From an uncultured Ruminococcus sp. (GTDB lineage Bacteria > Bacillota > Clostridia > Oscillospirales > Acutalibacteraceae), in the NCBI GenBank assembly GCA_902762335.1, contig CACWNZ010000001.1:1-26060 (forward strand): a stretch of DNA of 26,060 bases, written 5' to 3'. The notes below the pieces were generated by a model that was given only the letters and a program-made list of their open reading frames with translations, did not search any database and was not told the origin of the DNA. Numbering within the stretch: the first letter of the stretch is position 1; every line of letters begins with the position of its first letter. The position numbers and the translations under genes are program-made. Shown here in pieces: positions 6,654 to 25,463 of this stretch.

Positions 6654-6950
6654 ATGACCATAGAACAAAAGAAGAACGGCTCAAGTGTCTGTATCGCCGT
6701 TGCGGGCAGGCTTGACACCGCCACCGCGCCCGAGCTTGAGAGCGCCATACAGGGCGTACCCGGCGATACCACCCTGCTCACCCTCGATCTTGAAAAGCTC
6801 GACTATATCTCCTCCGCAGGACTCAGGGTGCTGCTCTCGGCTCATAAGGCGATCAGCCCGAAGGGAAAGCTGAAGATCGTAAACGCCAACGAAGCCATAA
6901 CAGAGATCTTCGATATAACGGGCTTCTCGGCAATTCTTAATATCGGATAA
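6654..6950 (+). CDS. STAS-domain anti-sigma-factor antagonist (SpoIIAA/RsbV-like), copy 1
   Basis: 98 aa; GRLDTATAPELE and LDYISSAGLRVLL with the conserved phospho-acceptor Ser. Confidence 0.93.
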   Translation: MTIEQKKNGSSVCIAVAGRLDTATAPELESAIQGVPGDTTLLTLDLEKLDYISSAGLRVLLSAHKAISPKGKLKIVNANEAITEIFDITGFSAILNIG

Positions 6951-7017: not shown

Positions 7018-7662
7018 TCATATCTGTAAGGGACCGTTCCGTATCAGCCGCATTATCCCGGCGGCATCGAGCGGTATGATATGCAGCTCCGAAAACGGCT
7101 CGGAGCAGGCGGCCGCCACCGAGCGGTTTTTCCATACCGCGGAGCGGTAATACCATATCCTGCCGTCAAAGGCAAGACTGTCCGTTTCGGGATCCACGCA
7201 CAGGGAAACCGGCTCCACGCTCATACCGAGCCCCGCCGCCTTCAGTATGCTTTCCTTTATGCTCCACAGACGATAAAAGCGCTCAGGAGGGTCAGCCTTT
7301 ATCCATTCCCGTTCTTCAGGGCAAAAAACTAAGGGCGCAAGCTTCAGGTTTTCGCTGCTTATGCCCTCGATGTCCGTTCCGAGCTCACTGCCGCCGAAGG
7401 CGATCGCGGCGCAGCCGTCGGAATGGCTCAGACTGAAAAACCTGCCCGACCGCGAATACGGCTTGCCGTATTTATTCAGGCTTATATCGGCTTCCCTCTC
7501 ACCCGCGCAGCAGGTCAGCAGAAGCCCCGCCCCCATACACATAAGTCTGTCCTCATATCTGAGATAGCGCCGCGCTTTTTTCATTCTTTCGGGAAACAGA
7601 GCCTCGCACGGCTCCTCCCCCACCCTTGCAGCCTCTTCGTTTTCGATCGTATAAATATCCAT
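7018..7662 (-). CDS. Sfp-type 4'-phosphopantetheinyl transferase
   Basis: YGKPY, FSLSHS, GTDIE, WSIKESILKAAG motifs; ATG 7662 with GGGGGAG RBS. Confidence 0.92.
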   Translation of the reverse strand: MDIYTIENEEAARVGEEPCEALFPERMKKARRYLRYEDRLMCMGAGLLLTCCAGEREADISLNKYGKPYSRSGRFFSLSHSDGCAAIAFGGSELGTDIEGISSENLKLAPLVFCPEEREWIKADPPERFYRLWSIKESILKAAGLGMSVEPVSLCVDPETDSLAFDGRIWYYRSAVWKNRSVAAACSEPFSELHIIPLDAAGIMRLIRNGPLQI

Positions 7663-7833
7663 TCTCTCAACTCCCCCGAAGCCTTCGGCTTGTAAATAAT
7701 TATACGGCAAAGTCCGCGCACGGCGCAAGTTTTTCCGATCCGTACTGTCCGCCGTGAAACGACGAAATATCATAGCATTTTGCGAGGTCCCGTGCTATAA
7801 TATATTTATCAGTATCGAAAAGGAGAGGGTAAA

Positions 7834-10633: not shown

Positions 10634-10690
10634 GACCGTTCCCCTCCGTTCTCGGACGATCTGCCGCCCGCGTGTTTTGGGACTGCTCTA

Positions 10691-10719
10691 ATTGTAGCAT
10701 TTTCGGCGGGGTATATCAA
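10691..10719 (-). promoter_or_regulatory. Candidate sigma-A promoter for the nitrilase-fold/NUDIX pair
   Basis: Minus strand TTGATA-17 nt-TACAAT with TG extension. Confidence 0.65.
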
Positions 10720-10777
10720 CGGAAAAACGGGATACCCGTAAAAATTTTTGCTGCGTTGTGTATATATACGGATCTTC

Positions 10778-10806
10778 TTGCACATTGTCCAAATTTATGG
10801 TATGAT
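10778..10806 (+). promoter_or_regulatory. Candidate sigma-A promoter for the NRPS operon
   Basis: TTGCAC (10778-10783), 17 nt, TATGAT (10801-10806) with TG extension; AAGGAG RBS before ATG 10843. Confidence 0.75.
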
Positions 10807-10842
10807 AATATCATTAAATTACCGTATCAAAGGAGTTTTCTT

Positions 10843-13800
10843 ATGAGCAGTATTATCGAAAGAATACAAAAAAACATAGCGGACTATCCCGACCACGAAG
10901 TAATCGTCGATCAGGGCGAGAACAACAGCTTCACCTACCGTGAGTTCGATCTTTATGCCGCAAGAGTCGCCGCAAGGCTCAAAAAGCAGGGTGTAACAAG
11001 AGGTGATTTTGTCACCATCGAGCTTCCGAGAAACAAGGAGTATATCGCCTCAATGTACGCCGTATGGAGAGTCGGAGCGGCATTTGCGCCCCTGTCTCCG
11101 GCATATCCGGCGGAGCGTCTTGAATTTATCCGCAATGACTGCGACGCAAAGGCGGTCATCAATGAAAAATTCCTGCGTGACATCGAAAACGAGGAGCCGT
11201 TTTATGATATTGTGACACCCCGTCCGGAGGACCCTTCACTGCTGATATATACCTCGGGCTCTACGGGAAAGCCGAAGGGCGTTCTGCATACCCACGCGGG
11301 CATAGAGGATTCCATTGCAAGATACTCCGACTACGCAAAGCCGCCTATGGGCTTCCGCGCGGCACTCGGCGCGCCGTTTACCTTTGTCGCATCGGTACAG
11401 GGCGTATTTGCTCCGCTTTGTTCGTGTCTCACGGCGTATCTCATGCCCTATCAGGCAATGCGCGACCCCGTTCTCCTTGCCGATTATATCTATGAAAACA
11501 AGATAAACCGCACCTTTATCAGCCCGAAAATGCTCAAGGTGTTCAAGCCCAAGGGCGATTCACTCAAGGTGGTCTATACGGGCAGTGAGCGCGTCAGCAA
11601 TACCTACAGCGACGACTTTGAGATAATCGTCAGCTACGGTCAGACGGAATCCGCAGGCGCCGTAATGATGTTCAAACTTGACAGGAAATACGAAAACACG
11701 CCGATCGGCAAGCCTATCGGAGATATACGCATACATATACTTGACGAAAACGGCAGCGAAGCCGACGAGGGCGAGCTTTGTCTTGCGGGAATATTTGCGG
11801 AGTGCTACCTCAATCTTCCCGAGCAGACCGCCAAGACCTTTATCGACAATCCCTTTGCCGACGAGGACGGCTATAAAAAGCTGCTCAGAACAGGAGATAT
11901 CGTCAAAAAGGGTGAGGACGGCAATATCATCTATCTCAACCGCAGGGATTGGATGGTCAAGATAAACGGTCAGCGCGTTGAGCCGGGTGAAATAGAGGCT
12001 ATCATCAAGAGCACCGACGGCATACATGACGCCGCGCTCAAGGACTTCAAGAATCAGTACGGTCAGGTATATCTTGTCGCCTATTACGTTGAGAGCTCAC
12101 CCGTCAATGCCGATGATATAAAGGCGGCTATCTCCAAAAAGCTGCCGCCCTATATGATACCCGCCTTCTTTGTGCGTCTTGACAAGCTGCCCGTAAACGC
12201 AAACGGAAAGCTGGACAGAAACGCCCTTATCGCTCCCGAGGCAGGCAGCTTCAAGACCGACTATATCGCTCCCGAAACCGATATGCAGAAGGTGCTGTGT
12301 TCCGCCTTTGAAGCCGTTCTCGGTGTTGAGAACGTGGGCATTGACGACGATTTCTTCGCTCTCGGCGGCGATTCTATCAAGTGCGCCATGACTGCGGCAA
12401 AGTGCGGCGTGTATAAAATTTCCACCGCAGATATCTTTGCCGGAAAGACTCCCCGCATGATAGAGCGTCTGCTCATTCAGAAGGCGTCTGCAAAGAGCGT
12501 TGTCAAAAAGGAAAAGAAAGCAAGGATATATCCGCTGACCCCCTCGGAAAGAGGAATGTATCTTGAACAGAAGCTGAACGAAAAGTCGGTAGTCTATAAT
12601 CTGAATATCGCCGCTATCATAAAAGGCTCAGATATTGAAAAGATAAAAGAAGCTCTTAATGCCGTTTTCAGGGCTCACGAGGCGTTCTACTCCTATTACG
12701 GCGAAGAAAACGGTCTGCCCGTTCGTATTCTCTCCGACAAGCTGCCCGAGATCAAGGAAAAGACCGCCGCAACCCGTGAGGAAGTCATTGACATAATAGA
12801 CAGCTATGCGGAGCCCTTCGACCTCAATACGGGCATTCCCGTCAGACCTACTCTCTATTCCGTCGCGGACGGCAGCGTGATACTTCATCTCGCGATACAT
12901 CATATCGCCTTTGACGGCGGCTCGGCAAAGACCTTTGTAAGCGAGCTGATCGACGGTCTTAACGGCAAAGAGATCACCGCCGCCGAGATAGACCTCTCCG
13001 ACCTCTACAGCGACAGCCTTGAAGCAAAATATGAGAGCGGTCTGAAATATTACAGAGAGATTTTCTCGGACGGCGTACCCGTGAACGAAATGCCCACAAA
13101 GGGCAAGCGTCCGAAGGTGCATCCGCTTTCCGACCGTCAGATCGACTTTGATATAGACAACGAAAAGCTGAAAGCAATCGACAATACCGCCCGCAAATTC
13201 AGCGTGACGGAGTTTGAGCTGATCTTCTCGGCTGTGTCCATGACCCTCGGAAAATACACCTCGTCCGAGGACGTGGTTTTAGGCATTCCCACAAATATGC
13301 GCCCCAACGGCGCCGATAACGTCATCGGTATGTTCGTCAACACCGCTCCCGTCCGTGTACGCCCGAAGCGTAACGCGGAAATTCAGGATTATTTGCAGAG
13401 TGTCAGCGAAGCCGTGCGCAGCGTGACATACGGCGCATATCTGCCCTTTGAGGACGTTGTTGCCGAATTTGTAAAGCAACGTGACGAGTCCCGCAACCCA
13501 ATGTTTGACGTGAGCGTCAACTTCATGTGGAATCCGCCAGCCTACAACAAGGACGGTCTGAGCGTTGAGATGTATTCGCCTCTCCAGAAGATGAGCCGCG
13601 ATATCGGCATCGTCATACGCAAGGGCGCAAAGGGTCTGCACTTTATGGTGCAGTATTCCTCGGAGCTTTTTGAGGATACCCTGATAGAGAACTTCATCGA
13701 GCAGCTCAGATCGGCAATCGATCTGCTCGGCACGGCAGCAACGGTAAGAGATGCTCTTGTCCTTCCCGAAAAGCAGAAGGAACAGCTTGAGAAATTCGCC

Positions 13801-16773
13801 GTTGAAGCCGAAGAGGAAATACCCGTAACGCTGCTGCACAAGCTCTTTGAAAAGAGCGTTTCCGAAAACAAAGACAAGACCGCGCTCATCGCAAAGGACT
13901 GCACACTTACATACGATGAACTGAACAAGAGGGCAAATATCGTTGCCCATAACCTGATAGACAGGGGTATAAAAACAGGAGACAGCGTAGCCCTTCTTCT
14001 GCCGAGAGAAAGCTGCTTCTTTGCCTGTATGTTCGGCGTTAACAAGGCGGGAGCGGCGTTCATACCCTGCGACCCGCAGTACCCCGCAGACAGGATAAAC
14101 CATATCATTACCGACTCCGAAGCATCATTTATCATCACCACAGCCGACAAGCTTGCGGATTATCCCGCCGACAAGGCTATCAATGTTGAGGACATCACAA
14201 AGGGCGCTCAGACGGAGAATCCCGATGTAGAGATGAGCGACCGGGAGCTTGCGTATATGATCTATACCTCAGGCTCCACCGGAAAGCCCAAGGGCGTTAT
14301 GCTCCGGCACAGAGGTATCTGCAACTATCTCATGCCCCACCCCGCAAATTCACATATCTATTATCTGAAAAACAATGTCAGCACCTATCTTTCCGTGACG
14401 ACCGTCTCCTTTGATATGTCATTTAAGGAACACACGGCAGCCTTCTGCAACGGCAAGACCCTTGTGTTTGCCGGCGAGGACGAGATGAATGACCCCCGCG
14501 CCCTTGCCGAGCTTATGGAAAAGTACAATGTTGACTGTATAAACGCGACCCCGTCAAGACTCCAGCAGTATCTTGAATATACTCCGTTCAAGACTGTCCT
14601 TTCAAAGTGCCGTCTTGTCATGTCCGGCGGCGAGGGATATCCCATGTCCCTGCGCGACACAATAAAGGAATGTTCAAAAGAAATAAAAATAGTCAATACC
14701 TACGGTCCTACCGAGATCACCGTCTCCTGTAACGCGGCGGACCTTACAAACGCTTCTCAGGTCACCGTCGGCAGACCGCTGCTGAATTATAACGAGGTCA
14801 TCGTTGATAAATTCGGAGACGTATCGCCCTACGGCGTTGTGGGTGAGCTTTATATCGGCGGCGTGGGAGTTGCAAAGGGATACCGCAATCTGCCCGAAAA
14901 GACAGCGCAGGCATTTGTTGAGTTCGGCGGTCAGCGGATGTACCGCTCCGGCGACTATGCAAAGTGGGACAAGGACGGAAACGTGCATATCCTCGGCAGA
15001 CTTGACAGTCAGGTCAAGCTCCGTGGACTGCGTATAGAGCTGGGCGAAATTGAAGGGCTTATCGCACAGCAGCCCCACATCAAGAAGGTCGCAGTAATCA
15101 TCCGCAAGCTCAGCGGTCAGGAGAATCTCTGTGCCTACTTTACCGCCGATACCGAAATTGATATAAATGCACTCAGGGATGAGCTGAAAAAGCACCTGAC
15201 CCATTATATGATACCCACTGCATATCTCCAGATGAACGAAATGCCCATGACCGCCAACGGCAAGACCGACACCAAAATGCTGCCCGACCCCGTTCCCGTT
15301 AGCCTCGGAGAATACGTCGCTCCCGCTAACAAGACCGAGGAGTTCTTCTGCGAGTCCTTCAGAAAGGTGCTTAAGCTTGACCGTGTGGGCGCTACCGATG
15401 ACTTCTTTGAGATAGGCGGCACCTCGCTGATCGTTACTTCAGTCGTACTTGACGCGTCCGAAAACGGCTTCAGCATAACCTACGGCGACGTATTCAAATA
15501 TACCACCCCGAGAGCCCTTGCTGAGCTCTTCAAGGACGGAGAGGTCAACGACACAAACAAGCTGTTTGATTTTGAGGGCTATGACTATTCAAAGATAAAC
15601 GAGCTGCTGTCAAAGAACAACGTTGAAGCCTTCCGCAGCGGAGAAATAAAAGAGCTCGGGAATGTACTCATCACCGGCGCAACCGGCTATATGGGCGCTC
15701 ACCTGCTTGCTGAGTACCTCAAGCGTGAAAGCGGCAAAGCATACTGTATGGTGCGAAAGGGCAGGTTTGATTCCGCCGCCGAGCGCCTTGAGAACATGAT
15801 GTTCTATTACTTCGGCTCTGATCTTGAAGAAGAATTCAAAAGCCGCGTTGAGGTGCTGAACGGCGACGTTACCGACTACAAATACTTTGAGCCCTTTGAG
15901 ACTCTGCCGATAAACACCGTGTTCAACTGCGCGGCAAACGTAAAGCACTTCTCCAACGGCACAGACATCGAAGACATCAACGTAGGCGGCGCCGTCAACT
16001 GCATAAAGCTCTGCCGGAAACTGAGCGCAAGGCTGATACACTTTTCCACCGTTTCCGTTTCGGGAACAACAGACGACATTTCCAAGCTCAGCCGCCGCGA
16101 GCTTGACGAGCAGACGCTCTATTACGGTCAGACCCTCGACAACAAATACACCTCCTCAAAGCTCATGGGTGAGCGCATGGTGCTTGAAGCCGCCGCAGAA
16201 GGACTTGACGCAAAGGTCATTCGCGTAGGCACTCTTGCCGCCCGCGAATCCGACGGCGAGTTCCAGATAAACTTCCTCACCAACAACTTTATGGGACGTC
16301 TGCGCTCCTACAGCCTGCTCGGCTGCTTCCCCTACAGCATGATAGAGAATCAGGTATGCATGGGACCGATAGACCGTTCCTGCGAAGCCTTCCTCAAGCT
16401 TGCAAAGACCCCGAAGGAATGCTGCGTGTTCAATGCGGTAAACAACCACACACTTCCGCTTGGCGATATTATCCGTCAGATGAACGAAAACGGCAGCAAG
16501 GTAGATTTTGTAGAGTACGAGGAATTTGCCGCGGCTCTGCACGAAGCCCAGAAAGACCCGGACAAAGCCGCAATTCTCTCAAGTATGACGGCGTATATGA
16601 ACACCGCTCACGGCAAAAAGATAGTCGCCCTGCCCTTCAACGCCCACTATACCACACAGATACTCGCCCGCATGGGCTTCTTCTGGAATGCAAGCAACGA
16701 AAAATACGTGGGTGACTTCATCAACGTACTGCGCGGCTTCCTGTTCTTCCGCAAGGACAATCTCAAAAGATAA
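10843..16773 (+). CDS. Bimodular non-ribosomal peptide synthetase, A-T-C-A-T-R (terminal thioester reductase)
   Basis: 1976 aa from ATG 10843; two YTSGSTGKPKG A3 motifs; T domains GGDSI (Ser 12373) and GGTSL (Ser 15424); C domain HHIAFDG (12898-12918); R domain ITGATGYMG and YTSSK. Confidence 0.97.
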   Translation: MSSIIERIQKNIADYPDHEVIVDQGENNSFTYREFDLYAARVAARLKKQGVTRGDFVTIELPRNKEYIASMYAVWRVGAAFAPLSPAYPAERLEFIRNDCDAKAVINEKFLRDIENEEPFYDIVTPRPEDPSLLIYTSGSTGKPKGVLHTHAGIEDSIARYSDYAKPPMGFRAALGAPFTFVASVQGVFAPLCSCLTAYLMPYQAMRDPVLLADYIYENKINRTFISPKMLKVFKPKGDSLKVVYTGSERVSNTYSDDFEIIVSYGQTESAGAVMMFKLDRKYENTPIGKPIGDIRIHILDENGSEADEGELCLAGIFAECYLNLPEQTAKTFIDNPFADEDGYKKLLRTGDIVKKGEDGNIIYLNRRDWMVKINGQRVEPGEIEAIIKSTDGIHDAALKDFKNQYGQVYLVAYYVESSPVNADDIKAAISKKLPPYMIPAFFVRLDKLPVNANGKLDRNALIAPEAGSFKTDYIAPETDMQKVLCSAFEAVLGVENVGIDDDFFALGGDSIKCAMTAAKCGVYKISTADIFAGKTPRMIERLLIQKASAKSVVKKEKKARIYPLTPSERGMYLEQKLNEKSVVYNLNIAAIIKGSDIEKIKEALNAVFRAHEAFYSYYGEENGLPVRILSDKLPEIKEKTAATREEVIDIIDSYAEPFDLNTGIPVRPTLYSVADGSVILHLAIHHIAFDGGSAKTFVSELIDGLNGKEITAAEIDLSDLYSDSLEAKYESGLKYYREIFSDGVPVNEMPTKGKRPKVHPLSDRQIDFDIDNEKLKAIDNTARKFSVTEFELIFSAVSMTLGKYTSSEDVVLGIPTNMRPNGADNVIGMFVNTAPVRVRPKRNAEIQDYLQSVSEAVRSVTYGAYLPFEDVVAEFVKQRDESRNPMFDVSVNFMWNPPAYNKDGLSVEMYSPLQKMSRDIGIVIRKGAKGLHFMVQYSSELFEDTLIENFIEQLRSAIDLLGTAATVRDALVLPEKQKEQLEKFAVEAEEEIPVTLLHKLFEKSVSENKDKTALIAKDCTLTYDELNKRANIVAHNLIDRGIKTGDSVALLLPRESCFFACMFGVNKAGAAFIPCDPQYPADRINHIITDSEASFIITTADKLADYPADKAINVEDITKGAQTENPDVEMSDRELAYMIYTSGSTGKPKGVMLRHRGICNYLMPHPANSHIYYLKNNVSTYLSVTTVSFDMSFKEHTAAFCNGKTLVFAGEDEMNDPRALAELMEKYNVDCINATPSRLQQYLEYTPFKTVLSKCRLVMSGGEGYPMSLRDTIKECSKEIKIVNTYGPTEITVSCNAADLTNASQVTVGRPLLNYNEVIVDKFGDVSPYGVVGELYIGGVGVAKGYRNLPEKTAQAFVEFGGQRMYRSGDYAKWDKDGNVHILGRLDSQVKLRGLRIELGEIEGLIAQQPHIKKVAVIIRKLSGQENLCAYFTADTEIDINALRDELKKHLTHYMIPTAYLQMNEMPMTANGKTDTKMLPDPVPVSLGEYVAPANKTEEFFCESFRKVLKLDRVGATDDFFEIGGTSLIVTSVVLDASENGFSITYGDVFKYTTPRALAELFKDGEVNDTNKLFDFEGYDYSKINELLSKNNVEAFRSGEIKELGNVLITGATGYMGAHLLAEYLKRESGKAYCMVRKGRFDSAAERLENMMFYYFGSDLEEEFKSRVEVLNGDVTDYKYFEPFETLPINTVFNCAANVKHFSNGTDIEDINVGGAVNCIKLCRKLSARLIHFSTVSVSGTTDDISKLSRRELDEQTLYYGQTLDNKYTSSKLMGERMVLEAAAEGLDAKVIRVGTLAARESDGEFQINFLTNNFMGRLRSYSLLGCFPYSMIENQVCMGPIDRSCEAFLKLAKTPKECCVFNAVNNHTLPLGDIIRQMNENGSKVDFVEYEEFAAALHEAQKDPDKAAILSSMTAYMNTAHGKKIVALPFNAHYTTQILARMGFFWNASNEKYVGDFINVLRGFLFFRKDNLKR

Positions 16774-16785
16774 GGGGGCTGAAAT

Positions 16786-18519
16786 ATGAAACGCAGAGGA
16801 GATCTCCTCAACGAAAAATACCGCAGTCTGTTATGGGCGACCCTCGCAATGACGGCATCAAACTATCTCTCCGGGATACTTGACGGCATTATGGTGGGTC
16901 AGATGCTCGGTACCGTCGAGCTTTACGCTATCAACCTGACCACCTGTATCATCTTCCTGCGGAGCATCCCCATAGCCATGTTCACCTTCGGCGGCAACAC
17001 CCTGTCGGTCATCAGAAAAAGCAAGCGCGACGGACAGGGCGCCGATACCGTTTTTACACTGTCCTTCTGGGCGGGAATACTTTCCACTATACTTATTTCG
17101 ATCATCGGTCTTGCGGTGATAACCCCCACGGCGGAGCTTCTTGCTCAGGGAAAACAGGAGCTTGTCGGGCTCGTTATCGACTATCTCCTGCCCCTTTGGA
17201 TACTGACGCCATTGGTGGCGGCGGTAAATCAGACAGCCGCCTACGCCCGTACGGACGGTATGCGAAAATTGGCGACCGCCCTTCCCATTGTGGCAAACGT
17301 GGTCAATCTTGGCTGCGACGGACTGTATATGGGCGTATTCCATTGGGGCGTTGCGGGTGCGGGCTGGGCGACCGTGACCGGCTATATTGTCGGAACGGCG
17401 ATGACACTTATTTACTTCAAGTCAAAAAAGCGGACGGTGCATTTTACAAAGGAAGCTCTGAAAAAGCTCAGGGAGCTCGGAAAGATATTCGGTGTTGGTC
17501 TCCCCTCTGCCCTGATCTATGTGTGCAACTTCCTCAGGCTGTTCTTTACAAACGCCATAATACTTTCGGCGACGGGCGTTGTGGGCGGCAAGATAGCCTC
17601 TGTTTCCTTCTCACTGAACAGCCTTGCATTCATCTTTGTTGAGGGCGCGTCTATGACCCTTCTGCCGATACTCGGCGCGCTCTACGGCGAAAAGGATACC
17701 AACGGACAAAAGCTTACCCTGCGCTACGGCATGATCATCACGGTCGGTCTTTCGGTCGCAGTGTTCATCCTGTCAGAACTTCTGCCGGTACAGCTTGCGT
17801 CCATGTACGGACTTACCGACCCTGCGGTCACAGAGGTATTTGCGGCGACCTTCCGCATCTTCTCAATAAATATCCCGATACTCGGCGTTATCTACGTCAT
17901 GCGCTCGTTCTTTCAGGCGACGAAGCAGAGAGGGCTTGCAAATCTGCTCGTCATGCTGGACGGCGTGCTTACGATAGTCCCTCTCATGTATTGGTTTTCC
18001 CATTATGATATCTATTGGCTGTGGATGTCCTTCCCGGTTTCAAAGGCATTAACGGTAATCATCACATTTGCAGCAATGCTTATCGGCAAAAGGGTAAAGA
18101 AAAAGAAAAACCTGCTCGGCATTGAGGAGCAGGACGGGATCGCTTTCGACTTTACCATAGACAATGAGGTATCGCAGGCAATAAAGGCGTCAGAGGAAGC
18201 TATAAGCTTCTGTCAGGAAAAGTCTCTTCCCGAAAACACGGTAAACGCCGTCGGCGTAACGGTAGAGGAGCTTTGCCACAATATTGCAACCTATGCCCGC
18301 TCATCCACCAACAAGACCGTTGACGTCTGTGTGCGTATCTTTGACGACAAGGTGAACATCCGCCTGCGTGACAACGGGGTGGAGTTTGACCCGACAGATT
18401 ACATCGACACGAGCGGAAAGCGCATAACAGGGCTTACGCTTGTCAGAAAGCTCAGCTCGTCGATCAGCTATAACCGTGTTTTAGGCTTCAACGTGACAAA
18501 CGTAACGATAAATTATTGA
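16786..18519 (+). CDS. MATE-family efflux transporter fused to a C-terminal RsbW-like HATPase domain
   Basis: About 450 aa multi-TM region with MATE-type motifs (LPIVANVVNLGCDGLYMGVFHWGVAGAGWAT; LPILGALYGEKD), then EELCHNIATYA and RDNGVEFDP. Confidence 0.9.
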   Translation: MKRRGDLLNEKYRSLLWATLAMTASNYLSGILDGIMVGQMLGTVELYAINLTTCIIFLRSIPIAMFTFGGNTLSVIRKSKRDGQGADTVFTLSFWAGILSTILISIIGLAVITPTAELLAQGKQELVGLVIDYLLPLWILTPLVAAVNQTAAYARTDGMRKLATALPIVANVVNLGCDGLYMGVFHWGVAGAGWATVTGYIVGTAMTLIYFKSKKRTVHFTKEALKKLRELGKIFGVGLPSALIYVCNFLRLFFTNAIILSATGVVGGKIASVSFSLNSLAFIFVEGASMTLLPILGALYGEKDTNGQKLTLRYGMIITVGLSVAVFILSELLPVQLASMYGLTDPAVTEVFAATFRIFSINIPILGVIYVMRSFFQATKQRGLANLLVMLDGVLTIVPLMYWFSHYDIYWLWMSFPVSKALTVIITFAAMLIGKRVKKKKNLLGIEEQDGIAFDFTIDNEVSQAIKASEEAISFCQEKSLPENTVNAVGVTVEELCHNIATYARSSTNKTVDVCVRIFDDKVNIRLRDNGVEFDPTDYIDTSGKRITGLTLVRKLSSSISYNRVLGFNVTNVTINY

Positions 18520-18532
18520 CAGGGGGTATGCT

Positions 18533-18967
18533 ATGAAACAGGATATACCCGATACGAAAAGCGTTCCTGCGGAAAGCCGCATATTTACGCTTAACAGGCA
18601 GACCTTTGAGGACGTGATAAGCTATATCGAAGAACGCTGCCGCGCCCTCGGCTGCGGTGAAAAGGCGCTGAGCCGTATTTCCGTGTCATCATCGGAAATT
18701 CTTGCAAATATTGATTCCTACGCCTACGAAAACGGCGGTGAGGTCGAAATAACGATCTCCCGCAGCGGCAGAAGGCTCACGATCACCTTCAAAGACAGCG
18801 GCGCGCCCTTTGACCCGCTCAGCGTAAAGCCTCCCGACGTGACGGCTCCGCTGAGCGAGCGTGAACCGGGCGGACTCGGAATATTTATCGTCAGAAAGCT
18901 GATGAGCAGTGTCAGATATGAATACGCTGACGGTCAGAACGTTCTGACCGTAGAAAAGGAGCTCTGA
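18533..18967 (+). CDS. Anti-sigma-factor-type Ser/Thr kinase (RsbW/SpoIIAB-like HATPase)
   Basis: N box EILANIDSYAY, G1 DSGAPFDP, G2 PGGLGIFIVRKLM. Confidence 0.92.
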   Translation: MKQDIPDTKSVPAESRIFTLNRQTFEDVISYIEERCRALGCGEKALSRISVSSSEILANIDSYAYENGGEVEITISRSGRRLTITFKDSGAPFDPLSVKPPDVTAPLSEREPGGLGIFIVRKLMSSVRYEYADGQNVLTVEKEL

Positions 18968-18968
18968 G

Positions 18969-20141
18969 ATGAAGGATACGAAGATCATTATTGCGGGCGA
19001 CCTTATGCCTATGCCCTGCAATTACGGGCTGTTTTCCGACGGAGACGCGCAGGCTCTTTTCGGAAAAAGACTCTGCGATATGTTTGCTTCGGCGGACTAC
19101 CGGATATGCAATTTTGAAGGCTGTTTTACCGACGGCGACAATCCCATTGAAAAGACAGGTCCTGTGATAAAGGCACCGACTTCAACCATTAAGGCGATAA
19201 AGGCTCTCGGCATAAACTATGCCACCCTCGGCAACACCCACTCAATGGACAACGGCAGACAGGGCTATCTTGATACCTGCCGTACCCTTGAAGAAAACGG
19301 CATAGGCTATTTCGGCTGGGGCGACGATATCAATTCCGTCAGAACTCACGTCAGACTGACGGACTGCGGCAGGCGCATCGTACTTTATAACGTGACCGAG
19401 CTGTTTGAGAACGCTCCGGGTGAGAACACCCCGGGTGTGAATCTCTATGATGAATACCGTGTCTGTCAGGAACTGAAAGAGCTTAAAGCGGAGTGTGACC
19501 TTCTTATCGTGTTCTATCACGGCGGCATTGAAGGGTCGCATTATAACAGCGAGGTCATGCGGAAACGCTTTCACCGTATGGCGGACAGCGGCGCAGACGT
19601 GATAATTTCACAGCATACCCACGCGATCGGCGAAGAGGAGCATTATAACGGCTCATATCTTCTCTACGGTCAGGGGAATTTCTGCTTCCATTTCCGCAGT
19701 GAGGTCACCCCGCTTCTTGCCGAGGGACTCGTGCTTGAGATAGACCTCAACGACAGCGGCTTCACGGCAAAGCCCCACCGCATTATCCGCACCGAAAAGG
19801 GCTGCGTCTATGATGAAAAGCAGGAGCTTGATGAGTTCTATGCCCGAAGCAGAATGCACGACGCGCTTCTCAATGGCGACAGGGCGGCAAAAGAGGAGTT
19901 TGAACGGAACTTTTCAGAGGACTGCAAAAGCTGGCTGACCCAGTTCCTTCTGACCTTCAGGGGCATTGACCCCGAGATCGCAAAATTACGCAAGGAGCTT
20001 TCACCGTCAGAATTAAGGGATCATCTTATCTCCCTCTACCCCAGACCATATCTGACAGCTCTTCTGACGTTTCTGAAAAATGAAGAATTCAACGAGATCG
20101 GCAGACGGCTCCTGAGCGATCTGCTCAAAGAAAAACAATAA
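18969..20141 (+). CDS. CapA/PgsA-family metallophosphoesterase-fold protein
   Basis: IIIAGD, CNFEG, LGNTHSMD, FYHGG, GADVIISQHTH, YGQGNFCF motifs; starts 1 nt after the kinase stop. Confidence 0.85.
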   Translation: MKDTKIIIAGDLMPMPCNYGLFSDGDAQALFGKRLCDMFASADYRICNFEGCFTDGDNPIEKTGPVIKAPTSTIKAIKALGINYATLGNTHSMDNGRQGYLDTCRTLEENGIGYFGWGDDINSVRTHVRLTDCGRRIVLYNVTELFENAPGENTPGVNLYDEYRVCQELKELKAECDLLIVFYHGGIEGSHYNSEVMRKRFHRMADSGADVIISQHTHAIGEEEHYNGSYLLYGQGNFCFHFRSEVTPLLAEGLVLEIDLNDSGFTAKPHRIIRTEKGCVYDEKQELDEFYARSRMHDALLNGDRAAKEEFERNFSEDCKSWLTQFLLTFRGIDPEIAKLRKELSPSELRDHLISLYPRPYLTALLTFLKNEEFNEIGRRLLSDLLKEKQ

Positions 20142-20155
20142 AGGAGAAAACAACA

Positions 20156-20452
20156 ATGACGATAAAGACTTATGAAAAGGACGGCTCACCCGTCGTTGCA
20201 CCCGAGGGAAGGATCGACCACGTTACGGCTGCCGAATTTGAACAGAAGATAAACGAGGTCGGCAGGGACAGCGATAAATTGACTCTTGACTTGGCGGGCG
20301 TAGAATACGTCAGCTCCGCCGCACTCAGAGTTATTCTGAAGGCAAACGATATGGTAAAGGACAAGGGCGGCATGATCATCATAAACGTAAACCGCAAGGT
20401 CATGGAGATCTTCAACGTAACGGGCTTTTCCGATTATCTTGACATCAGATGA
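20156..20452 (+). CDS. STAS-domain anti-sigma-factor antagonist, copy 2
   Basis: 98 aa; EGRIDHVTAAEFE and VEYVSSAALRVIL; AAGGAG RBS. Confidence 0.93.
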   Translation: MTIKTYEKDGSPVVAPEGRIDHVTAAEFEQKINEVGRDSDKLTLDLAGVEYVSSAALRVILKANDMVKDKGGMIIINVNRKVMEIFNVTGFSDYLDIR

Positions 20453-20491
20453 CAGCACGCCCCTAAAGCGCAAAGGAGCTTCAATAACAAA

Positions 20492-20533
20492 ACCGCCGAC
20501 AAAGCAGGCAGAATGACCCGTTTTGTCGGCGGT
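20492..20533. terminator. Bidirectional intrinsic terminator between the NRPS operon and the PP2C gene
   Basis: ACCGCCGACAAA (20492-20503) / TTTGTCGGCGGT (20522-20533), with A-rich flank before and T-rich flank after. Confidence 0.75.
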
Positions 20534-20542
20534 ATTTTTGTT

Positions 20543-22234
20543 TTATGCATCATGATCTCCGTCAGCCGCTTTGTCGTCGGCAGACTTTCCCGCGCCCCTG
20601 TACTCTATGCAAAGCATCGTAAGATCGTCGAACTGCTCGGCATCCTTTACGAATTCGTTTACGGAGCGTCTGACGTTTTTGAGTATCTCCCCGGGGGCGG
20701 CGGAGCTCTGCTCGTTGAGCGCCCCGATCATGCGGTCGATACCGAACTGCTCCTGAGCCTTATCCGTTGCCTCGGGAACGCCGTCCGTATATAAAAACAG
20801 CTTGGACCCCGGGCTGAGCCGTATTTCGTATTCCTTGTAGCTCATACCGCTTATACCGCCCAGAACGAAGCCGTGCTTATCCCTGTAAAGCTCAAACTCT
20901 CCGTCGGGCTTCATCAGTACGGGATATTCATGCCCCGCGTTGGCAGCCGTCAGCCTTCCGGTAGAAAGCTCAAGTATCCCCAGCCAGACCGTGACGAACA
21001 TATCCTCACGGTTATTGGCGCAGACCGCGGCATTGGTGTCGGTAAGTATCTGCGCGGGCGATTTTCCGCTCATGGCGTTGTTCGCTAAAATAATCTTGGA
21101 GGACATCATAAACAAAGCCGCAGGTACTCCCTTGCCGGATACGTCCGCCATTACGATGCAGAGATGGTCGTCGTCCACAAGGAAAAAGTCGTAAAAATCA
21201 CCGCCTACCTCCTTTGCAGGGTCCATAGCCGCATAAATATCAAATTCCGCGCGGTCGGGAAAGGGCGGAAAGACACCCGGCAGCATATCGGCCTGTATAC
21301 GCGCGGCAAGGGAAAGCTCAGTGCTTATGCGTTCCTTTTCGGCTGTAGCCTTTGTCAGATCCTCCACGTACCGTATTATCCTCTCCTCCATACGGTCGAT
21401 AGATGAAGCAAGCAGGCTGATCTCGTCGCGGGTCCTTATCTTTTCCTCAAGCTTTTTGTCCGCGGCGGTGTTATCCGAAGCAAAGCGGCCCGCCTCGTTT
21501 GCAATCTGCTTGACGGGGCGCAGGATAACGCGGTTAAGATAGATCGACTGTCCTATGACGACAAAGATGAGCAGACCGAGCATAGAAAAGAACACCTTGC
21601 CCAAATAGGTGTTGCGGACGTTTACAAGGCTGTCCATTTGCCGCTGAACGCAAAGGATCGCCGTCGTTTTGCCGCTTTTGTCCCTTATCGGTATCATTGC
21701 CGTTATATGGGGGTCGGTCTCGATATAGCCCTGATCTCTTATGACAAGCTCATTATCCGAGCCTTCCTCATACAGTCTGCGGTATTTTTCTTTGTATTCA
21801 TCGTTCGTCGTAGGGCGGACGTAGCCGAACTCATAGCGGGTGTAGCTGCTGTTTTCGTTGATAGTTGAAAACAGGAACGTGATATTATCGTAGGTCTTAT
21901 CCGGCCGTATAACGTAAATAAAGGTCGAGCCCGAGGAATTGCACAGAGTCTCAAGCTTATCCGATACCTGAGTGTATTCCCGGGTTTTGCCGCCGCTTGC
22001 GTAGTAGTCGTCTATCCTGTCGCTGTCGAGGATCATAATGGCAGTATCGGCGGTATGCACGGCGCCGTCATAATACTGCTCCATAAGAGCCTGCGTAAAG
22101 CCGTTAAAGCCTATTATGCTTACAATGACCGAAAAGACGATCATCAGAACGGCAAGACCCGAAATGCTCTTGAATATTATGCTTACCCTCGGACCCCTGC
22201 GCTTTTTTTCCGGGGTTTTATTTTTTTCCGCCAA
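20543..22234 (-). CDS. Membrane sensor PP2C/SpoIIE-type Ser phosphatase (RsbU-like): TM-extracytoplasmic sensor-TM-HAMP-PP2C
   Basis: EVGGDFYDFF, MADVSGKGVPAALFM, NAGHEYP, LYTDGVPEA, DDLTML; two TM helices and a HAMP segment; TTG 22234 has a GGAGG RBS (alternative ATG at 22270). Confidence 0.93.
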   Translation of the reverse strand: MAEKNKTPEKKRRGPRVSIIFKSISGLAVLMIVFSVIVSIIGFNGFTQALMEQYYDGAVHTADTAIMILDSDRIDDYYASGGKTREYTQVSDKLETLCNSSGSTFIYVIRPDKTYDNITFLFSTINENSSYTRYEFGYVRPTTNDEYKEKYRRLYEEGSDNELVIRDQGYIETDPHITAMIPIRDKSGKTTAILCVQRQMDSLVNVRNTYLGKVFFSMLGLLIFVVIGQSIYLNRVILRPVKQIANEAGRFASDNTAADKKLEEKIRTRDEISLLASSIDRMEERIIRYVEDLTKATAEKERISTELSLAARIQADMLPGVFPPFPDRAEFDIYAAMDPAKEVGGDFYDFFLVDDDHLCIVMADVSGKGVPAALFMMSSKIILANNAMSGKSPAQILTDTNAAVCANNREDMFVTVWLGILELSTGRLTAANAGHEYPVLMKPDGEFELYRDKHGFVLGGISGMSYKEYEIRLSPGSKLFLYTDGVPEATDKAQEQFGIDRMIGALNEQSSAAPGEILKNVRRSVNEFVKDAEQFDDLTMLCIEYRGAGKSADDKAADGDHDA

Positions 22235-22330
22235 CCGATATCCCTCCGATGATAAAAGTGTGAGCCTCATTTATACGCGGGCGGATAAGATACGCCGTAA
22301 TACCGCACAGAAGCTCCTTTTTCTCCTTCT

Positions 22331-22483: not shown

Positions 22484-23566
22484 TCACTCCTGCTCGCCCT
22501 TTCTGCGCTTCACGGCAAGGAACAGAGCTGCGGAAAGGCTTGCGACAAGCGCTGCCGAAACAGCTATAGCAGCTGAGGTGTCGCCTGTTTTGGGTGTGTT
22601 GTCGGCGGGCTTGACAGCGGAGCTCTCACCCGTATAATGTACTGCTATCTCAAGCTCGCCGTCGGAGAATACGAGGTTGAGATGATTCTCGCCGTCCTTG
22701 AGGAGCTTATCGGCAAGCTCCTTGCTGAAGGTCACCGCGCCGTTTTCAAGGGTAAGACCCTCCGTTTCGTCAGTTGCGGCAAGACCGCCGTCAATACGTA
22801 CCGCGACAGTATCGGACTTTGATGTCGTTCTGATCACGAAGCCGTCGCCGCCCTTGCCGTAGTCGATAGTGGTATGCTCGGCAAGGATAGGCTCTGCCTT
22901 TTCTTCAAACATTGCGGTAAGATTCAGCGCCTCGGATACGGTGATCGTGATCGTTTCCTCTGTGGAATAGGTCTCGTCCGTATCGCTGTTCATCCAGCCC
23001 TTGAACTCCCGACCTTCATCGGCTTTTGCGCCGAGGATTACGGTATCGCCTACAGCAGCGCTCAATGCGAGGCTCTGCTTCGGGTGCTCATCGCTGAACA
23101 CAGGCTCCGAGCCGTCCTCTGAAACAGCTATCTGACCCTCGCCCGCCGTGTTGGCTGAGATCGTCACGAGAGAAGCGTCTGCAAAAACCGCAGTGAGATC
23201 CAGACTTTCCGTAACGTCAACGGGAACTACGGGGCTCATGGAGAAGAACTCGTCCGTGTCGGTGTTTTTCCAATATACGAATTTCCAACCCTCGCTCGCC
23301 TTTGCGCCGATCCGGATAGTCGTGCCGACGTCGGCGTTTACATATAAGCTCTGCTTGGGCTTCTCATCGTCAAATTCGGGCACGCTGTCGTGATCGCTGA
23401 AGGCGACCTGACCGTTGCCCTCGGTGTTGACTGTTATCAGTACCGAGCCGTTGGCTGTCGTTATCGGCACAGTGTCTTCCTCGGGAGCCTCCTGCGCTGC
23501 GAATGCGGTGGTCGCCATAGAAGCTGCAAGAGCGGCTGCGATAAGGAGCGTGAGAATCTTTTTCAT
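22484..23566 (-). CDS. Sortase-anchored surface protein with two InlB B-repeat-like beta-sandwich repeats and a third Ig-like domain
   Basis: Signal peptide ending AFA; two 92-aa repeats with G..F..W and LTA.F; C-terminal TPKTG, hydrophobic helix, KRRK tail. Confidence 0.85.
   Translation of the reverse strand: MKKILTLLIAAALAASMATTAFAAQEAPEEDTVPITTANGSVLITVNTEGNGQVAFSDHDSVPEFDDEKPKQSLYVNADVGTTIRIGAKASEGWKFVYWKNTDTDEFFSMSPVVPVDVTESLDLTAVFADASLVTISANTAGEGQIAVSEDGSEPVFSDEHPKQSLALSAAVGDTVILGAKADEGREFKGWMNSDTDETYSTEETITITVSEALNLTAMFEEKAEPILAEHTTIDYGKGGDGFVIRTTSKSDTVAVRIDGGLAATDETEGLTLENGAVTFSKELADKLLKDGENHLNLVFSDGELEIAVHYTGESSAVKPADNTPKTGDTSAAIAVSAALVASLSAALFLAVKRRKGEQE
22907..23446 (-). repeat. 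Two tandem 92-aa intragenic repeats
   Basis: PKQSL at aa 70 and 162; TAVF/TAMF at aa 125 and 217; GAKA and W.N.DTDE in both units. Confidence 0.8.
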
Positions 23567-24170: not shown

Positions 24171-25463
24171 TCAGATGATCGCCTTCCAAGCCCCGCTTTT
24201 TTCAAAAAGCCCGAGGATATCCTTATCAAGACTGCCCTCGTCCGCCATATCGTGAAGTATCCGTAAAGCCCTTTCCGGCGGGATAGGCTTTTTGTAGGGT
24301 CTGTCCTTTGCGGTCAGGGCTTCATAAACGTCCAGGATCGTCAGCAGACGGATCTCCTTTGAGATCTCGTCTCCGCTCCTGTGCTGCGGATAGCCCTTGC
24401 CGTTGAGCAGCTCGTGATGTGAGCTTGCCCATTCGCGCACAACAAGGTAATCATCGGGGAAATCGATCTTATCAAGTATCCTTGCGGTAACGGACACGTG
24501 ACTCTGCATTATCGCCCTCTCCTCATCGGTCAGAGTGCCTCTCTTTATAGCAAGGCAGGTCAGCTCGTCCCGGGTCAGAACGGGCAGCTCCGTACCGTCC
24601 TCCTCCGTATAACGCTGCCGTGAGAGCTCTTCTATCAGAGCAAGATCGTCGTCGGAAAGAAAAGAGGAATTATTTATCCTGTTTATCGCCCCTGACCATG
24701 CGTTTCTCTGCTCCTCGCGGCTCTCAAATTCCTCACGGGTGATCCTTCCCTCAAGCATCGAGATACGGTCCAGCAAATGCATACGGCGGAATCTCTCTTC
24801 TATCTTTTCCGCCCTTGACCCGAGCCTTGTGGCTTTATCCATGACCTCCAGCGGGACGGAGAGCTTTCCCACGTCATGCAGCCAGATGCTTATCAAAAAA
24901 GCGTGCCTTTTTTGTTCGTCGAAGCTCCACTCGTGTCCGGTACGGTCAAGCCAATCCAAAAAGTCCTCGCCGAGCTTTACCATATTTTTGGTGTGGTTGG
25001 CGCTGTAGGGAGAGCGCTCGTCAATGGCGACCGAAAGCGCCTCTATGAGCGAATCCATCAGGGCGATAAGCTTATCGATGTATCGCTTTTTCATAGAAGC
25101 GAGATCGGTCATATCATTCAGAATGAGAAGCAGGGCGATCTTTCTGCCCTCGTTTTTGAGAAAGGACGACATCACGTAGATCGTCTTGGTGCCTGAAGGG
25201 GCTTCGTATTGTATCAGATTATAATGCGGTATCGGCTGACCGCCGACGGCATCTAAGATGATCTGATTGAACTCGTCATTTTTCTCATCGTCAAAAAACA
25301 AATTGCCAAACAGGTTATCCGTTAATTCAGCGCCGGTTTTTTCCAGAATATCTACCGTAGCCTGATTGAAGTATCGGATCCTTCCGTCAGGTCCGAGGAT
25401 AAGTATACCCTCTGAAATATCTCTGAAAATGCTGTTCTGTATCAGTTTATCTTGTTCGTTCAT
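24171..25463 (-). CDS. PAS-like + HD-GYP cyclic-dinucleotide phosphodiesterase
   Basis: N-terminal EGILILGPDGRIRYFN (PAS-like); LHDVGK, HHELLNGKGYP, DVYEALTAKDRPYKK; AGGAG RBS. Confidence 0.92.
   Translation of the reverse strand: MNEQDKLIQNSIFRDISEGILILGPDGRIRYFNQATVDILEKTGAELTDNLFGNLFFDDEKNDEFNQIILDAVGGQPIPHYNLIQYEAPSGTKTIYVMSSFLKNEGRKIALLLILNDMTDLASMKKRYIDKLIALMDSLIEALSVAIDERSPYSANHTKNMVKLGEDFLDWLDRTGHEWSFDEQKRHAFLISIWLHDVGKLSVPLEVMDKATRLGSRAEKIEERFRRMHLLDRISMLEGRITREEFESREEQRNAWSGAINRINNSSFLSDDDLALIEELSRQRYTEEDGTELPVLTRDELTCLAIKRGTLTDEERAIMQSHVSVTARILDKIDFPDDYLVVREWASSHHELLNGKGYPQHRSGDEISKEIRLLTILDVYEALTAKDRPYKKPIPPERALRILHDMADEGSLDKDILGLFEKSGAWKAII

Follow-up and report, generated by a model that had tools for sequence, protein, structure and literature searches.

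Many bacterial partner-switch modules, which combine a STAS protein, an RsbW-like kinase, and a PP2C phosphatase, have to our knowledge neither a sigma factor nor a known output. A module of this kind is encoded in a 26,060-nt stretch of DNA (hereafter, the window) from an uncultured Ruminococcus sp. (assembly GCA_902762335.1, contig CACWNZ010000001.1, positions 1 to 26,060, forward strand), which raises the question of what such a switch controls. The candidate considered here is the product of the gene at 16786..18519 (+), a MATE exporter that carries a fused RsbW-like pseudokinase tail. From sequence comparisons and structure models, we judge, with a confidence slightly above even, that the exporter is itself the output of a sigma-less partner switch and is reached through the tail, which would act as a STAS-docking pseudokinase.

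The fused gene is a single, uninterrupted open reading frame (ORF) of 577 codons. A GGGGG Shine-Dalgarno sequence lies 7 nt 5' of its ATG, the gene starts 12 nt past the stop codon of a gene for a 2,033-amino-acid (aa) nonribosomal peptide synthetase (NRPS), and 13 nt separate its end from the gene for a 144-aa RsbW-like kinase, which has a GGGGG site of its own. Pfam assigned to the protein both MatE (E = 7.8e-17, in two stretches) and HATPase_c_2 (aa 461-565; E = 3.1e-11), the latter with a score of 43.8 bits against a curated cutoff of 27.4. The NCBIfam MATE models matched aa 21-438 below their equivalog cutoffs, and the RsbW models matched weakly at aa 486-538. A full-length AlphaFold2 (AF2) model, for which the input alignment consisted of 72 family members, had a predicted local distance difference test (pLDDT) score of 90.8 and a predicted TM score (pTM) of 0.86, and it comprises 12 long helices, the last of which ends at aa 438, and, beyond a short linker of basic character, an alpha/beta domain from aa 452 (nt 18139). 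A first-pass annotation of the window, made from the sequence alone, had described an exporter fused to a kinase-fold domain starting at about 18140; the single ORF, the two Pfam domains, and the position of the first tail strand in the model all bear this out. Judged by an independent AlphaFold DB model (A0A1V5UMC6; 592 aa; 19% identity), which superposes on both domains (TM score 0.82), the domain arrangement is conserved.

A fused gene of this type could be an artifact, with an error in sequencing or assembly having merged two separate genes, a concern that the first-pass annotation itself had raised. The 120 best database matches to the protein are 78-96% identical to it and 577-585 aa long (nearly all 577 or 578 aa), contain both Pfam domains in every case, and belong to numerous assemblies, made independently, under the names Ruminococcus sp. 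or Oscillospiraceae. When the tail by itself was searched against a set of 1.8 billion representatives at 50% identity, 801 matches were obtained; 71 of the best 150 of these are at least 540 aa long, nearly all with the C-terminal domain, and most of the shorter ones look like fragments or free kinases. The domain-architecture census that the first-pass annotation had proposed thus returned ~70 clusters at 50% identity with the fused architecture, in distant representatives of 570-600 aa; complete genomes also contain it. An error was rejected as the origin of the fusion, since the same 577- to 578-aa frame occurs in >100 clusters from independent assemblies and homologs of equal length and architecture extend to the ~70 distant clusters; we regard an artifact as practically excluded.

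The family is sizable. Among the 100 nearest clusters in the ESM Atlas (at least 50 members each), 35 are labeled MatE plus HATPase_c_2 and 54 more, of ~581 aa, are labeled MatE alone; Bacillota account for these clusters throughout, and the family thus makes up between 35 and ~90 of the 100. Pfam overlooks the tail in divergent members, and one database source labels such a protein [quoted passage not shown] Using a profile of the tail, we searched ~800 Bacillota genomes, drawn as an even sample of the phylum (401 genomes) and a sample of the class (399 genomes), and found the fused gene in 8 and 18 genomes, respectively (~4.5% of the class sample), with the source genome counted and several families represented. 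A maximum-likelihood tree set the fused proteins apart from three plain MATEs (support, 92/96), and all but 1 of the 11 NRPS-adjacent members, the two copies of the source genome among them, formed a single clade (support, 99/100).

The transporter part (16786..18117; aa 1-444; 12 transmembrane [TM] helices) is of the DinF/PfMATE type according to Foldseek and phmmer. The top Foldseek matches were PfMATE (6fhz, 3wbn, and 6hfb), DinF-BH (4lz6), VcmN, and NorM, and ClbM was also among the matched pumps; TM scores by target were about 0.8-0.85, with E values down to 4e-14, and MurJ and Wzx scored lower. In the phmmer alignment with PfMATE (E = 5e-15), D33 corresponds to PfMATE D41, the Asp of TM1, and Asp is the consensus at this column across the fused family. 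Because of the fold matches and this alignment, the transporter part looks intact. The matched solved MATE structures are ~440-490 aa long and none has a C-terminal regulatory domain, in agreement with the earlier remark that characterized MATE transporters lack one. The cytoplasmic loop between TM8 and TM9 carries a G-x-L-Y-G-E-K-D motif (17674-17697; aa 297-304) that is almost invariant in the fused family, with D304 present in 72 of 72 members. Its G-E-K-D portion (aa 301-304) was considered as a site, particular to the family, at which the tail might dock and was rejected: PfMATE shares the loop in the form Y-G-E-R-N, and plain MATEs have a related one, G-A-G-[KR]-x-D.

The tail (18139..18516; aa 452-577) has the predicted fold of RsbW and SpoIIAB. 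When it was modeled separately (pLDDT, 91.7), its best matches in the Protein Data Bank were SpoIIAB (1th8; TM score, 0.79), RsbW (6m37), and UsfX (8ih8); all three structures were determined with STAS partners or sigma factors bound. The N box (18265..18294; aa 494-503; E-E-x-x-x-N-I-x-x-Y) reads E494-E495-L-C-H-N499, in which E495 and N499 align with the N-box Glu and Asn of SpoIIAB, and the G1 motif (18367..18393; aa 528-536; R-D-N-G-x-x-F-D-P), made up of R528-D-N-G531 and F534-D-P536 with D529-N-G531 as its Asp-x-Gly, aligns with R-D-E-G of SpoIIAB and D-E-G of RsbW. The N box and the D-N-G triplet noted in the first-pass annotation are therefore the residues that align with those of SpoIIAB and RsbW. 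The family-profile alignment to these proteins ends directly past G1. The G2 box is the part of the ATP lid that holds the phosphates, and the tail has a shortened lid without it (18385..18444; aa 534-553), with G549 as the sole remaining glycine. This post-G1 stretch is 20 residues long versus 28 in the neighboring free kinase (18533..18967), exactly the 8-residue shortening and missing G-G-L-G that had been read from the translations; if the lid is instead taken to run from the Gly of G1 through the final Gly of G2, it has 17 residues versus 25. T-G-L stands where the free kinase has G-G-L-G, and no G2 box is therefore recognized. The lid is also the region of lowest confidence in the AF2 model (pLDDT, 59-72). 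The tail and the free kinase are 27% identical over 116 aa (E = 3e-09). By sequence and model, then, the tail is a member of the RsbW/SpoIIAB branch of the GHKL proteins that lacks the G2 box of a kinase, and it is likely a pseudokinase.

A tail with this much of the active site could still be an active Ser kinase with a minimal lid, phosphorylating its cognate STAS protein at the membrane as a second switch kinase. The window protein and most of its clade keep the N-box Glu and Asn, the G1 Asp-x-Gly, and one lid Gly, as that reading would predict, and two loci (L037 and L038) comprise a STAS gene, the transporter gene, and a PP2C gene with no separate kinase nearby. A motif alignment of 98 non-identical fused tails with 11 free kinases from the same loci argues against it. 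The G2 Gly-x-Gly is found in 1 of the 98 fused tails (missing in 97) versus all 11 free kinases, and the median lid length is 19 residues (range, 6 to 28) versus 25. The N-box Asn is kept in 75 fused tails and lost in 23, the G1 Asp is kept in 87 and lost in 11, and the N-box Glu is kept in 97, versus 11/11 free kinases for each; the G1 Gly is kept in 83 of the 98. Asn, Asp, or both are lost in L037-L039 and L059-L063, and precisely the loci without a nearby kinase (L037-L039) have lost both. Intact free kinases are, moreover, co-encoded with the fused gene at 13 loci. We consider an active kinase improbable. The window protein lies at the conservative end of the family, with Glu, Asn, and Asp kept and G2 alone lost.

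Other positions of the tail are nearly fixed. In an alignment of 72 full-length members, E495, Y562, and N569 are invariant, and E494, D513, R528, D529, G531, F534, and P536 are at least 90% conserved. Together with the erosion of G2, Asn, and Asp, this near-invariance points to strong selection on the tail sequence for a role other than catalysis. The first-pass annotation had proposed a pseudokinase or STAS-docking module; the kinase fold and the family-wide loss of G2 (1/98 versus 11/11) stand, and they fit a non-catalytic docking module or pseudokinase of the kind proposed.

The genes around the fused gene supply the components that such a module would serve. In the window, they encode a free RsbW-like Ser kinase with complete N, G1, and G2 (G-G-L-G) boxes (18533..18967, +; HATPase_c_2, E = 4e-21); a single-domain STAS protein of the anti-sigma antagonist type with a Ser-Ser phosphoacceptor motif (20156..20452, +; Pfam STAS, E = 9e-16, and TIGR00377); and, convergent with the operon, a membrane sensor PP2C phosphatase (20543..22270, -; SpoIIE, E = 6e-51, with HAMP and a weak dCache_1 match). 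A second single-domain STAS protein, found by the genome search on the far side of the NRPS cluster (6654..6950, +; Pfam STAS, E = 7e-15), is 98 aa long, has the Ser-Ser motif, and is encoded beside the phosphopantetheinyl transferase gene. To see how these associations hold elsewhere, we scored the ORFs in up to 10 kb of flank on each side of 27 fused genes, and on two metagenome contigs, with profiles built from the window proteins; locus counts below refer to 29 loci other than the window, and the sigma factor count refers to 31 loci. Most contigs encoding the distant representatives were too short for gene context. Loci L040 and L041 were left out of the census and rejected as MATE fusions, as their tail-profile matches are PP2C-kinase fusions; L064 was also left out, with a MATE of the right length and a tail that was not significant.

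A partner-switch gene lies within 10 kb at 23 of the 29 loci (STAS at 17, PP2C at 19, and a true kinase at 13), usually in the order STAS, MATE-pseudokinase, PP2C, kinase, and in several taxonomic families. The PP2C gene is the very next gene at many loci, where it frequently overlaps its neighbor or lies 1-25 nt away, and an NRPS gene directly adjoins the fused gene at 10. All 17 linked STAS proteins keep the Ser-Ser acceptor motif (Y-V-S-S-A) and, by this motif, are phosphorylatable. The first-pass annotation had suggested that the fusion could be the missing output of the partner switch; that the transporter is integral to sigma-less STAS/PP2C/kinase operons is established by these counts, and its role as output is what they fit.

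The sigma factors that such switches classically control are absent from these operons. No Sigma70 domain was found by Pfam among the ORFs scanned in the window, a sigma factor gene is in the operon at 0 of 31 loci, and an ORF of the extracytoplasmic function (ECF)-like or sigma-70 family occurs within 10 kb at 4 of 31. One could suppose that the tail is a membrane-anchored anti-sigma factor sequestering a sigma factor encoded elsewhere, to be released by STAS, with the MATE part as an anchor or sensor: its fold is that of SpoIIAB, RsbW, and UsfX, and the source genome has 16 sigma-70-family matches. Classical systems co-encode the sigma gene, in contrast to the 0/31 found here, and the MATE domain is fully conserved, including the coupling Asp. 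We therefore hold this to be very unlikely. By sequence, the window system joins the sigma-independent partner switches, as the sigma target of the classical kind is lacking.

The source genome bears on which of the switch components goes with the transporter. Its assembly (1.99 Mb; 81% complete; 321 contigs) contains a second cassette (L001; contig C63, 337-11121) that encodes an NRPS of 2,898 aa, a MATE-pseudokinase of 595 aa, and a STAS protein of 98 aa, with gaps of 3 and 0 nt between them; the NRPS has three modules and is reductase terminated. No kinase or phosphatase gene was found on the 13.6-kb contig of this cassette. In the 81%-complete assembly, just one free HATPase_c_2 kinase passes the cutoff, alongside two fused transporters and three single-domain STAS proteins. 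STAS is likewise the sole switch gene beside the transporter in L045 and L051. Because of these three STAS-only pairs and the 2:3:1 ratio of transporters, STAS proteins, and kinases, we conclude that STAS tracks the transporter, not the kinase.

This bears on a reading in which the tail is a kinase decoy, or sigma mimic: the free kinase would heterodimerize with the tail in the manner of the SpoIIAB/RsbW homodimer and lock the exporter, and dephosphorylated STAS would capture the kinase and thereby free the transporter. The system would then be a genuine partner switch in which the tail of the transporter is the alternative partner. The tail is a paralog of the free kinase (27% identity, as noted) with the fold of the dimeric SpoIIAB and RsbW, the scheme uses all components, and a true kinase accompanies the fused gene in the window and at 13 of the 29 other loci. 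It does not readily accommodate loci that have the transporter and STAS, with or without PP2C, and no kinase nearby (L001, L045, L051, L037, and L038), nor the multiplication of STAS paralogs with transporters in a genome with one kinase. We consider the decoy unlikely, although less so than a catalytically active tail. Direct docking of STAS on the tail is favored over binding of the kinase for three reasons, namely, the kinase-less transporter-STAS pairs (L001, L045, and L051), the kinase-less STAS-transporter-PP2C operons (L037 and L038), and the rise in the number of STAS genes along with the transporter genes against a single kinase gene.

The tight linkage of PP2C raises another possibility, that the transporter is the input, with the tail reporting transport or substrate state, for example by binding and activating the adjacent PP2C as RsbT does RsbU, and with the output elsewhere. 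RsbT, an RsbW paralog, activates RsbU and is a known case in which a GHKL domain acts on a PP2C, and PP2C genes occur at 19 of the 29 other loci, at many of them directly beside the transporter gene. Such a sensor would leave the switch without an output, as neither a sigma factor nor any other effector recurs at the loci. The PP2C proteins also have a membrane sensor region of their own (HAMP and a weak Cache-like match) and no recognizable RsbU-type N-domain, matching just SpoIIE, HAMP, and, weakly, dCache, and the loci with only the transporter and STAS are hard to fit. The probability that we assign to a sensor lies between those of the decoy and the active kinase, which makes it unlikely as well. 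The first-pass annotation had left open whether the tail gates export or reports transport to the switch; operon logic, read from the gene sequences, favors gating.

In the mechanism that we prefer, in which the exporter is the output of the switch, the fused protein would be a functional, proton-coupled exporter of the DinF/PfMATE type whose tail is a catalytically disabled paralog of the switch kinase. The free kinase (18533-18967) would phosphorylate the small STAS proteins in a constitutive-looking manner and so reset the system, and the membrane sensor PP2C (20543-22270) would dephosphorylate STAS upon a signal from outside, which its extracytoplasmic region would receive as the input. 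Unphosphorylated STAS would then dock on the tail, as SpoIIAA does on SpoIIAB or RsbV on RsbW, and would stay bound there, the tail being unable to phosphorylate it; docking would alter the activity of the MATE domain. The transporter would thus fill the slot of the sigma factor in classical partner switches. In SpoIIAB, ADP is a cofactor for STAS docking, and by analogy a nucleotide may still be bound by the tail in that capacity. The circuit is complete only if the transporter is the output, because the sensor phosphatase, kinase, STAS, and receptor-like tail would otherwise have no effector. The cargo, here and in one clade of the family, would most likely be the compound made by the reductase-terminated NRPS whose gene directly precedes the fused gene; going by the clusters published for gut Clostridia, this compound would be a dipeptide aldehyde or a pyrazinone. 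The architecture, the fold, the loss of motifs, the linkage of the genes, and the lack of sigma genes are observed; we infer the binding of STAS to the tail and the phosphorylation dependence of that binding, as well as the sense in which export would change, any dependence on nucleotide, and the cargo. The full claim, that this is the first partner switch with a transporter as its direct output, in which the STAS state read by a MATE-fused pseudokinase gates the export of a reactive NRPS peptide aldehyde of gut or rumen Clostridia post-translationally, strikes us as falling a little short of even probability.

Several observations pull the other way. All six of the 29 loci without a switch gene are NRPS adjacent (two are on truncated contigs), and three loci (L056-L058) have PP2C and a kinase but no STAS gene within 10 kb. 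PP2C, as the tightest neighbor, would also fit an interaction between transporter and phosphatase. In the window protein, as in the NRPS-linked clade, the catalytic Glu is retained together with the Asn that binds Mg and the Asp that binds adenine, so that nucleotide binding may survive, or even residual activity. The interdomain geometry has the AF2 model as its one source, and the NRPS product was named as the most likely cargo from adjacency and general knowledge of related clusters.

Comparison with known systems places the fusion among, and apart from, several families. SpoIIAB and RsbW with their partners SpoIIAA and RsbV (1th8, 1tid, 6m36, and 6m37) share with it the fold, the N box, G1, a STAS acceptor Ser, and PP2C; unlike them, the fused protein has a 12-TM transporter, no G2, a short lid, a separate intact kinase, and no encoded sigma partner. 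UsfX, the RsbW homolog of Mycobacterium tuberculosis (8ih8 and 8jzt), has the fold common to the fused tail and binds STAS-type antagonists, but it is soluble and has sigma F as its partner, whereas the fused domain is on a transporter. UsfX is not known to phosphorylate these antagonists and would be a precedent for docking by an RsbW-like protein that is not a kinase. The SulP/SLC26 anion transporters are likewise secondary transporters in which the tail is half of a STAS/RsbW-type pair; they carry a C-terminal STAS domain, whereas the MATE fusion carries the opposite, kinase-like receptor half and belongs to a different superfamily. PfMATE, DinF-BH, and ClbM are the best structural matches of aa 1-444, with the TM1 Asp and the Y-G-E-[KR] loop common to PfMATE and the fusion, and ClbM exports an NRPS-PKS (polyketide synthase) product.

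Switches that work without a sigma factor have been described in Bordetella (BtrU/V/W, type III secretion), Vibrio (SypA/SypE), and Anabaena (HenR/All4160), in which the phosphorylation state of a STAS protein leads to a non-transcriptional output, a glycosyltransferase in the case of HenR/All4160 (PMC8256260; bioRxiv 10.64898/2026.04.08.717354). The outputs of the Btr, Syp, and HenR systems are a secretion process or a glycosyltransferase, reached by a STAS effector or an enzyme-fused STAS; here it is the RsbW-like partner that is fused, and to a MATE. Full-text literature searches yielded no publication that describes MatE fused to HATPase_c_2 or a partner switch linked to a MATE, and neither efflux nor MATE is mentioned in a 2021 review devoted to STAS-only proteins (PMC8256260). 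The fusion, known to databases by automatic annotation, appears uncharacterized.

Other physical arrangements of the same domains occur near fused genes. In L036 (3003-4868, -), 5 kb from the MATE-pseudokinase gene, a 621-aa protein combines an N-terminal STAS domain with an adenylation (AMP-binding) domain, a second kind of physical link between STAS signaling and an NRPS-type enzyme. STAS-linker-kinase proteins of ~530 aa are encoded beside the transporter in L052 (10452-12041) and L055 (13602-15209), and a 949-aa PP2C-kinase protein is encoded beside it in L050 (16766-19615); frames of ~940-950 aa with the same kinase domain recur in many genomes.

The NRPS gene directly upstream of the fused gene (10672..16773, +) encodes two modules and a terminal reductase in the order adenylation, thiolation, condensation, adenylation, thiolation, reductase (A-T-C-A-T-R; Pfam AMP-binding twice, Condensation, PP-binding twice, and NAD_binding_4); in the second cassette of the source genome the order is A-T-C-A-T-C-A-T-R. 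The listed GTG start of the window gene (10672-10842) is probably too early, and a Met near codon 58 (~nt 10843) is more plausible. An Sfp-type phosphopantetheinyl transferase is encoded at 7018..7773 (-; Pfam ACPS, E = 2.6e-13). Reductase-terminated NRPS clusters of gut Clostridia, associated with dipeptide aldehydes, pyrazinones, and ruminopeptin, likewise have the A-T-C-A-T-R order and an Sfp-type phosphopantetheinyl transferase, and products of related clusters have been reported as host protease inhibitors that are hard to detect in culture (PMC12327764).

The NRPS, MATE-pseudokinase, free kinase, CapA-like, and STAS genes follow one another in the window in this order, and they are likely co-transcribed, because the intergenic gaps are just 12, 13, 1, and 14 nt. 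The CapA/PGA_cap-family protein inside this operon (18969..20141, +; Pfam PGA_cap, E = 7e-43) also resembles, by a weak NCBIfam match, the lasso-peptide C-terminal epimerase MslH, and a gene similar to it lies ~5 kb from the transporter gene in L032; its role may be to tailor the NRPS product and not to take part in the switch. In bovine rumen metatranscriptome assemblies, short contigs of low depth match pieces of the NRPS end and of the MATE, tail, kinase, CapA-like, and STAS genes; the CapA-STAS junction is the sole gene junction bridged, none bridges the junction of the TM part and the tail, and DNA carry-over is possible. These contigs are compatible with low expression and have little bearing on operon structure. 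Near-identical short contigs (window 16000-20500) occur in several bovine rumen metatranscriptome runs, which indicates that the organism is a rumen inhabitant.

Elsewhere in the window, a 467-aa ORF between a NUDIX gene and the NRPS gene (9230-10633, -) has no Pfam match at an E value of 0.01, and a PAS plus HD_5 (HD-GYP-like) protein is encoded at 24171-25463 (-), downstream of an LPXTG-anchored surface protein (22484-23566), possibly as a cyclic-nucleotide signaling gene near the cluster.

For the partner switches that have no sigma factor, the family provides a concrete candidate output, a transporter with a fused STAS receptor, and it is thus relevant to research on partner switches, MATE pumps, and natural products of gut microbes. 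If the proposed mechanism is true, it would be a rare case of post-translational, signal-dependent gating of a MATE pump, and the reductase-terminated NRPS clusters of gut and rumen Clostridia would gain a further level of regulation. An understanding of the switch might make it easier to turn on the export, and perhaps the production, of their NRPS products.

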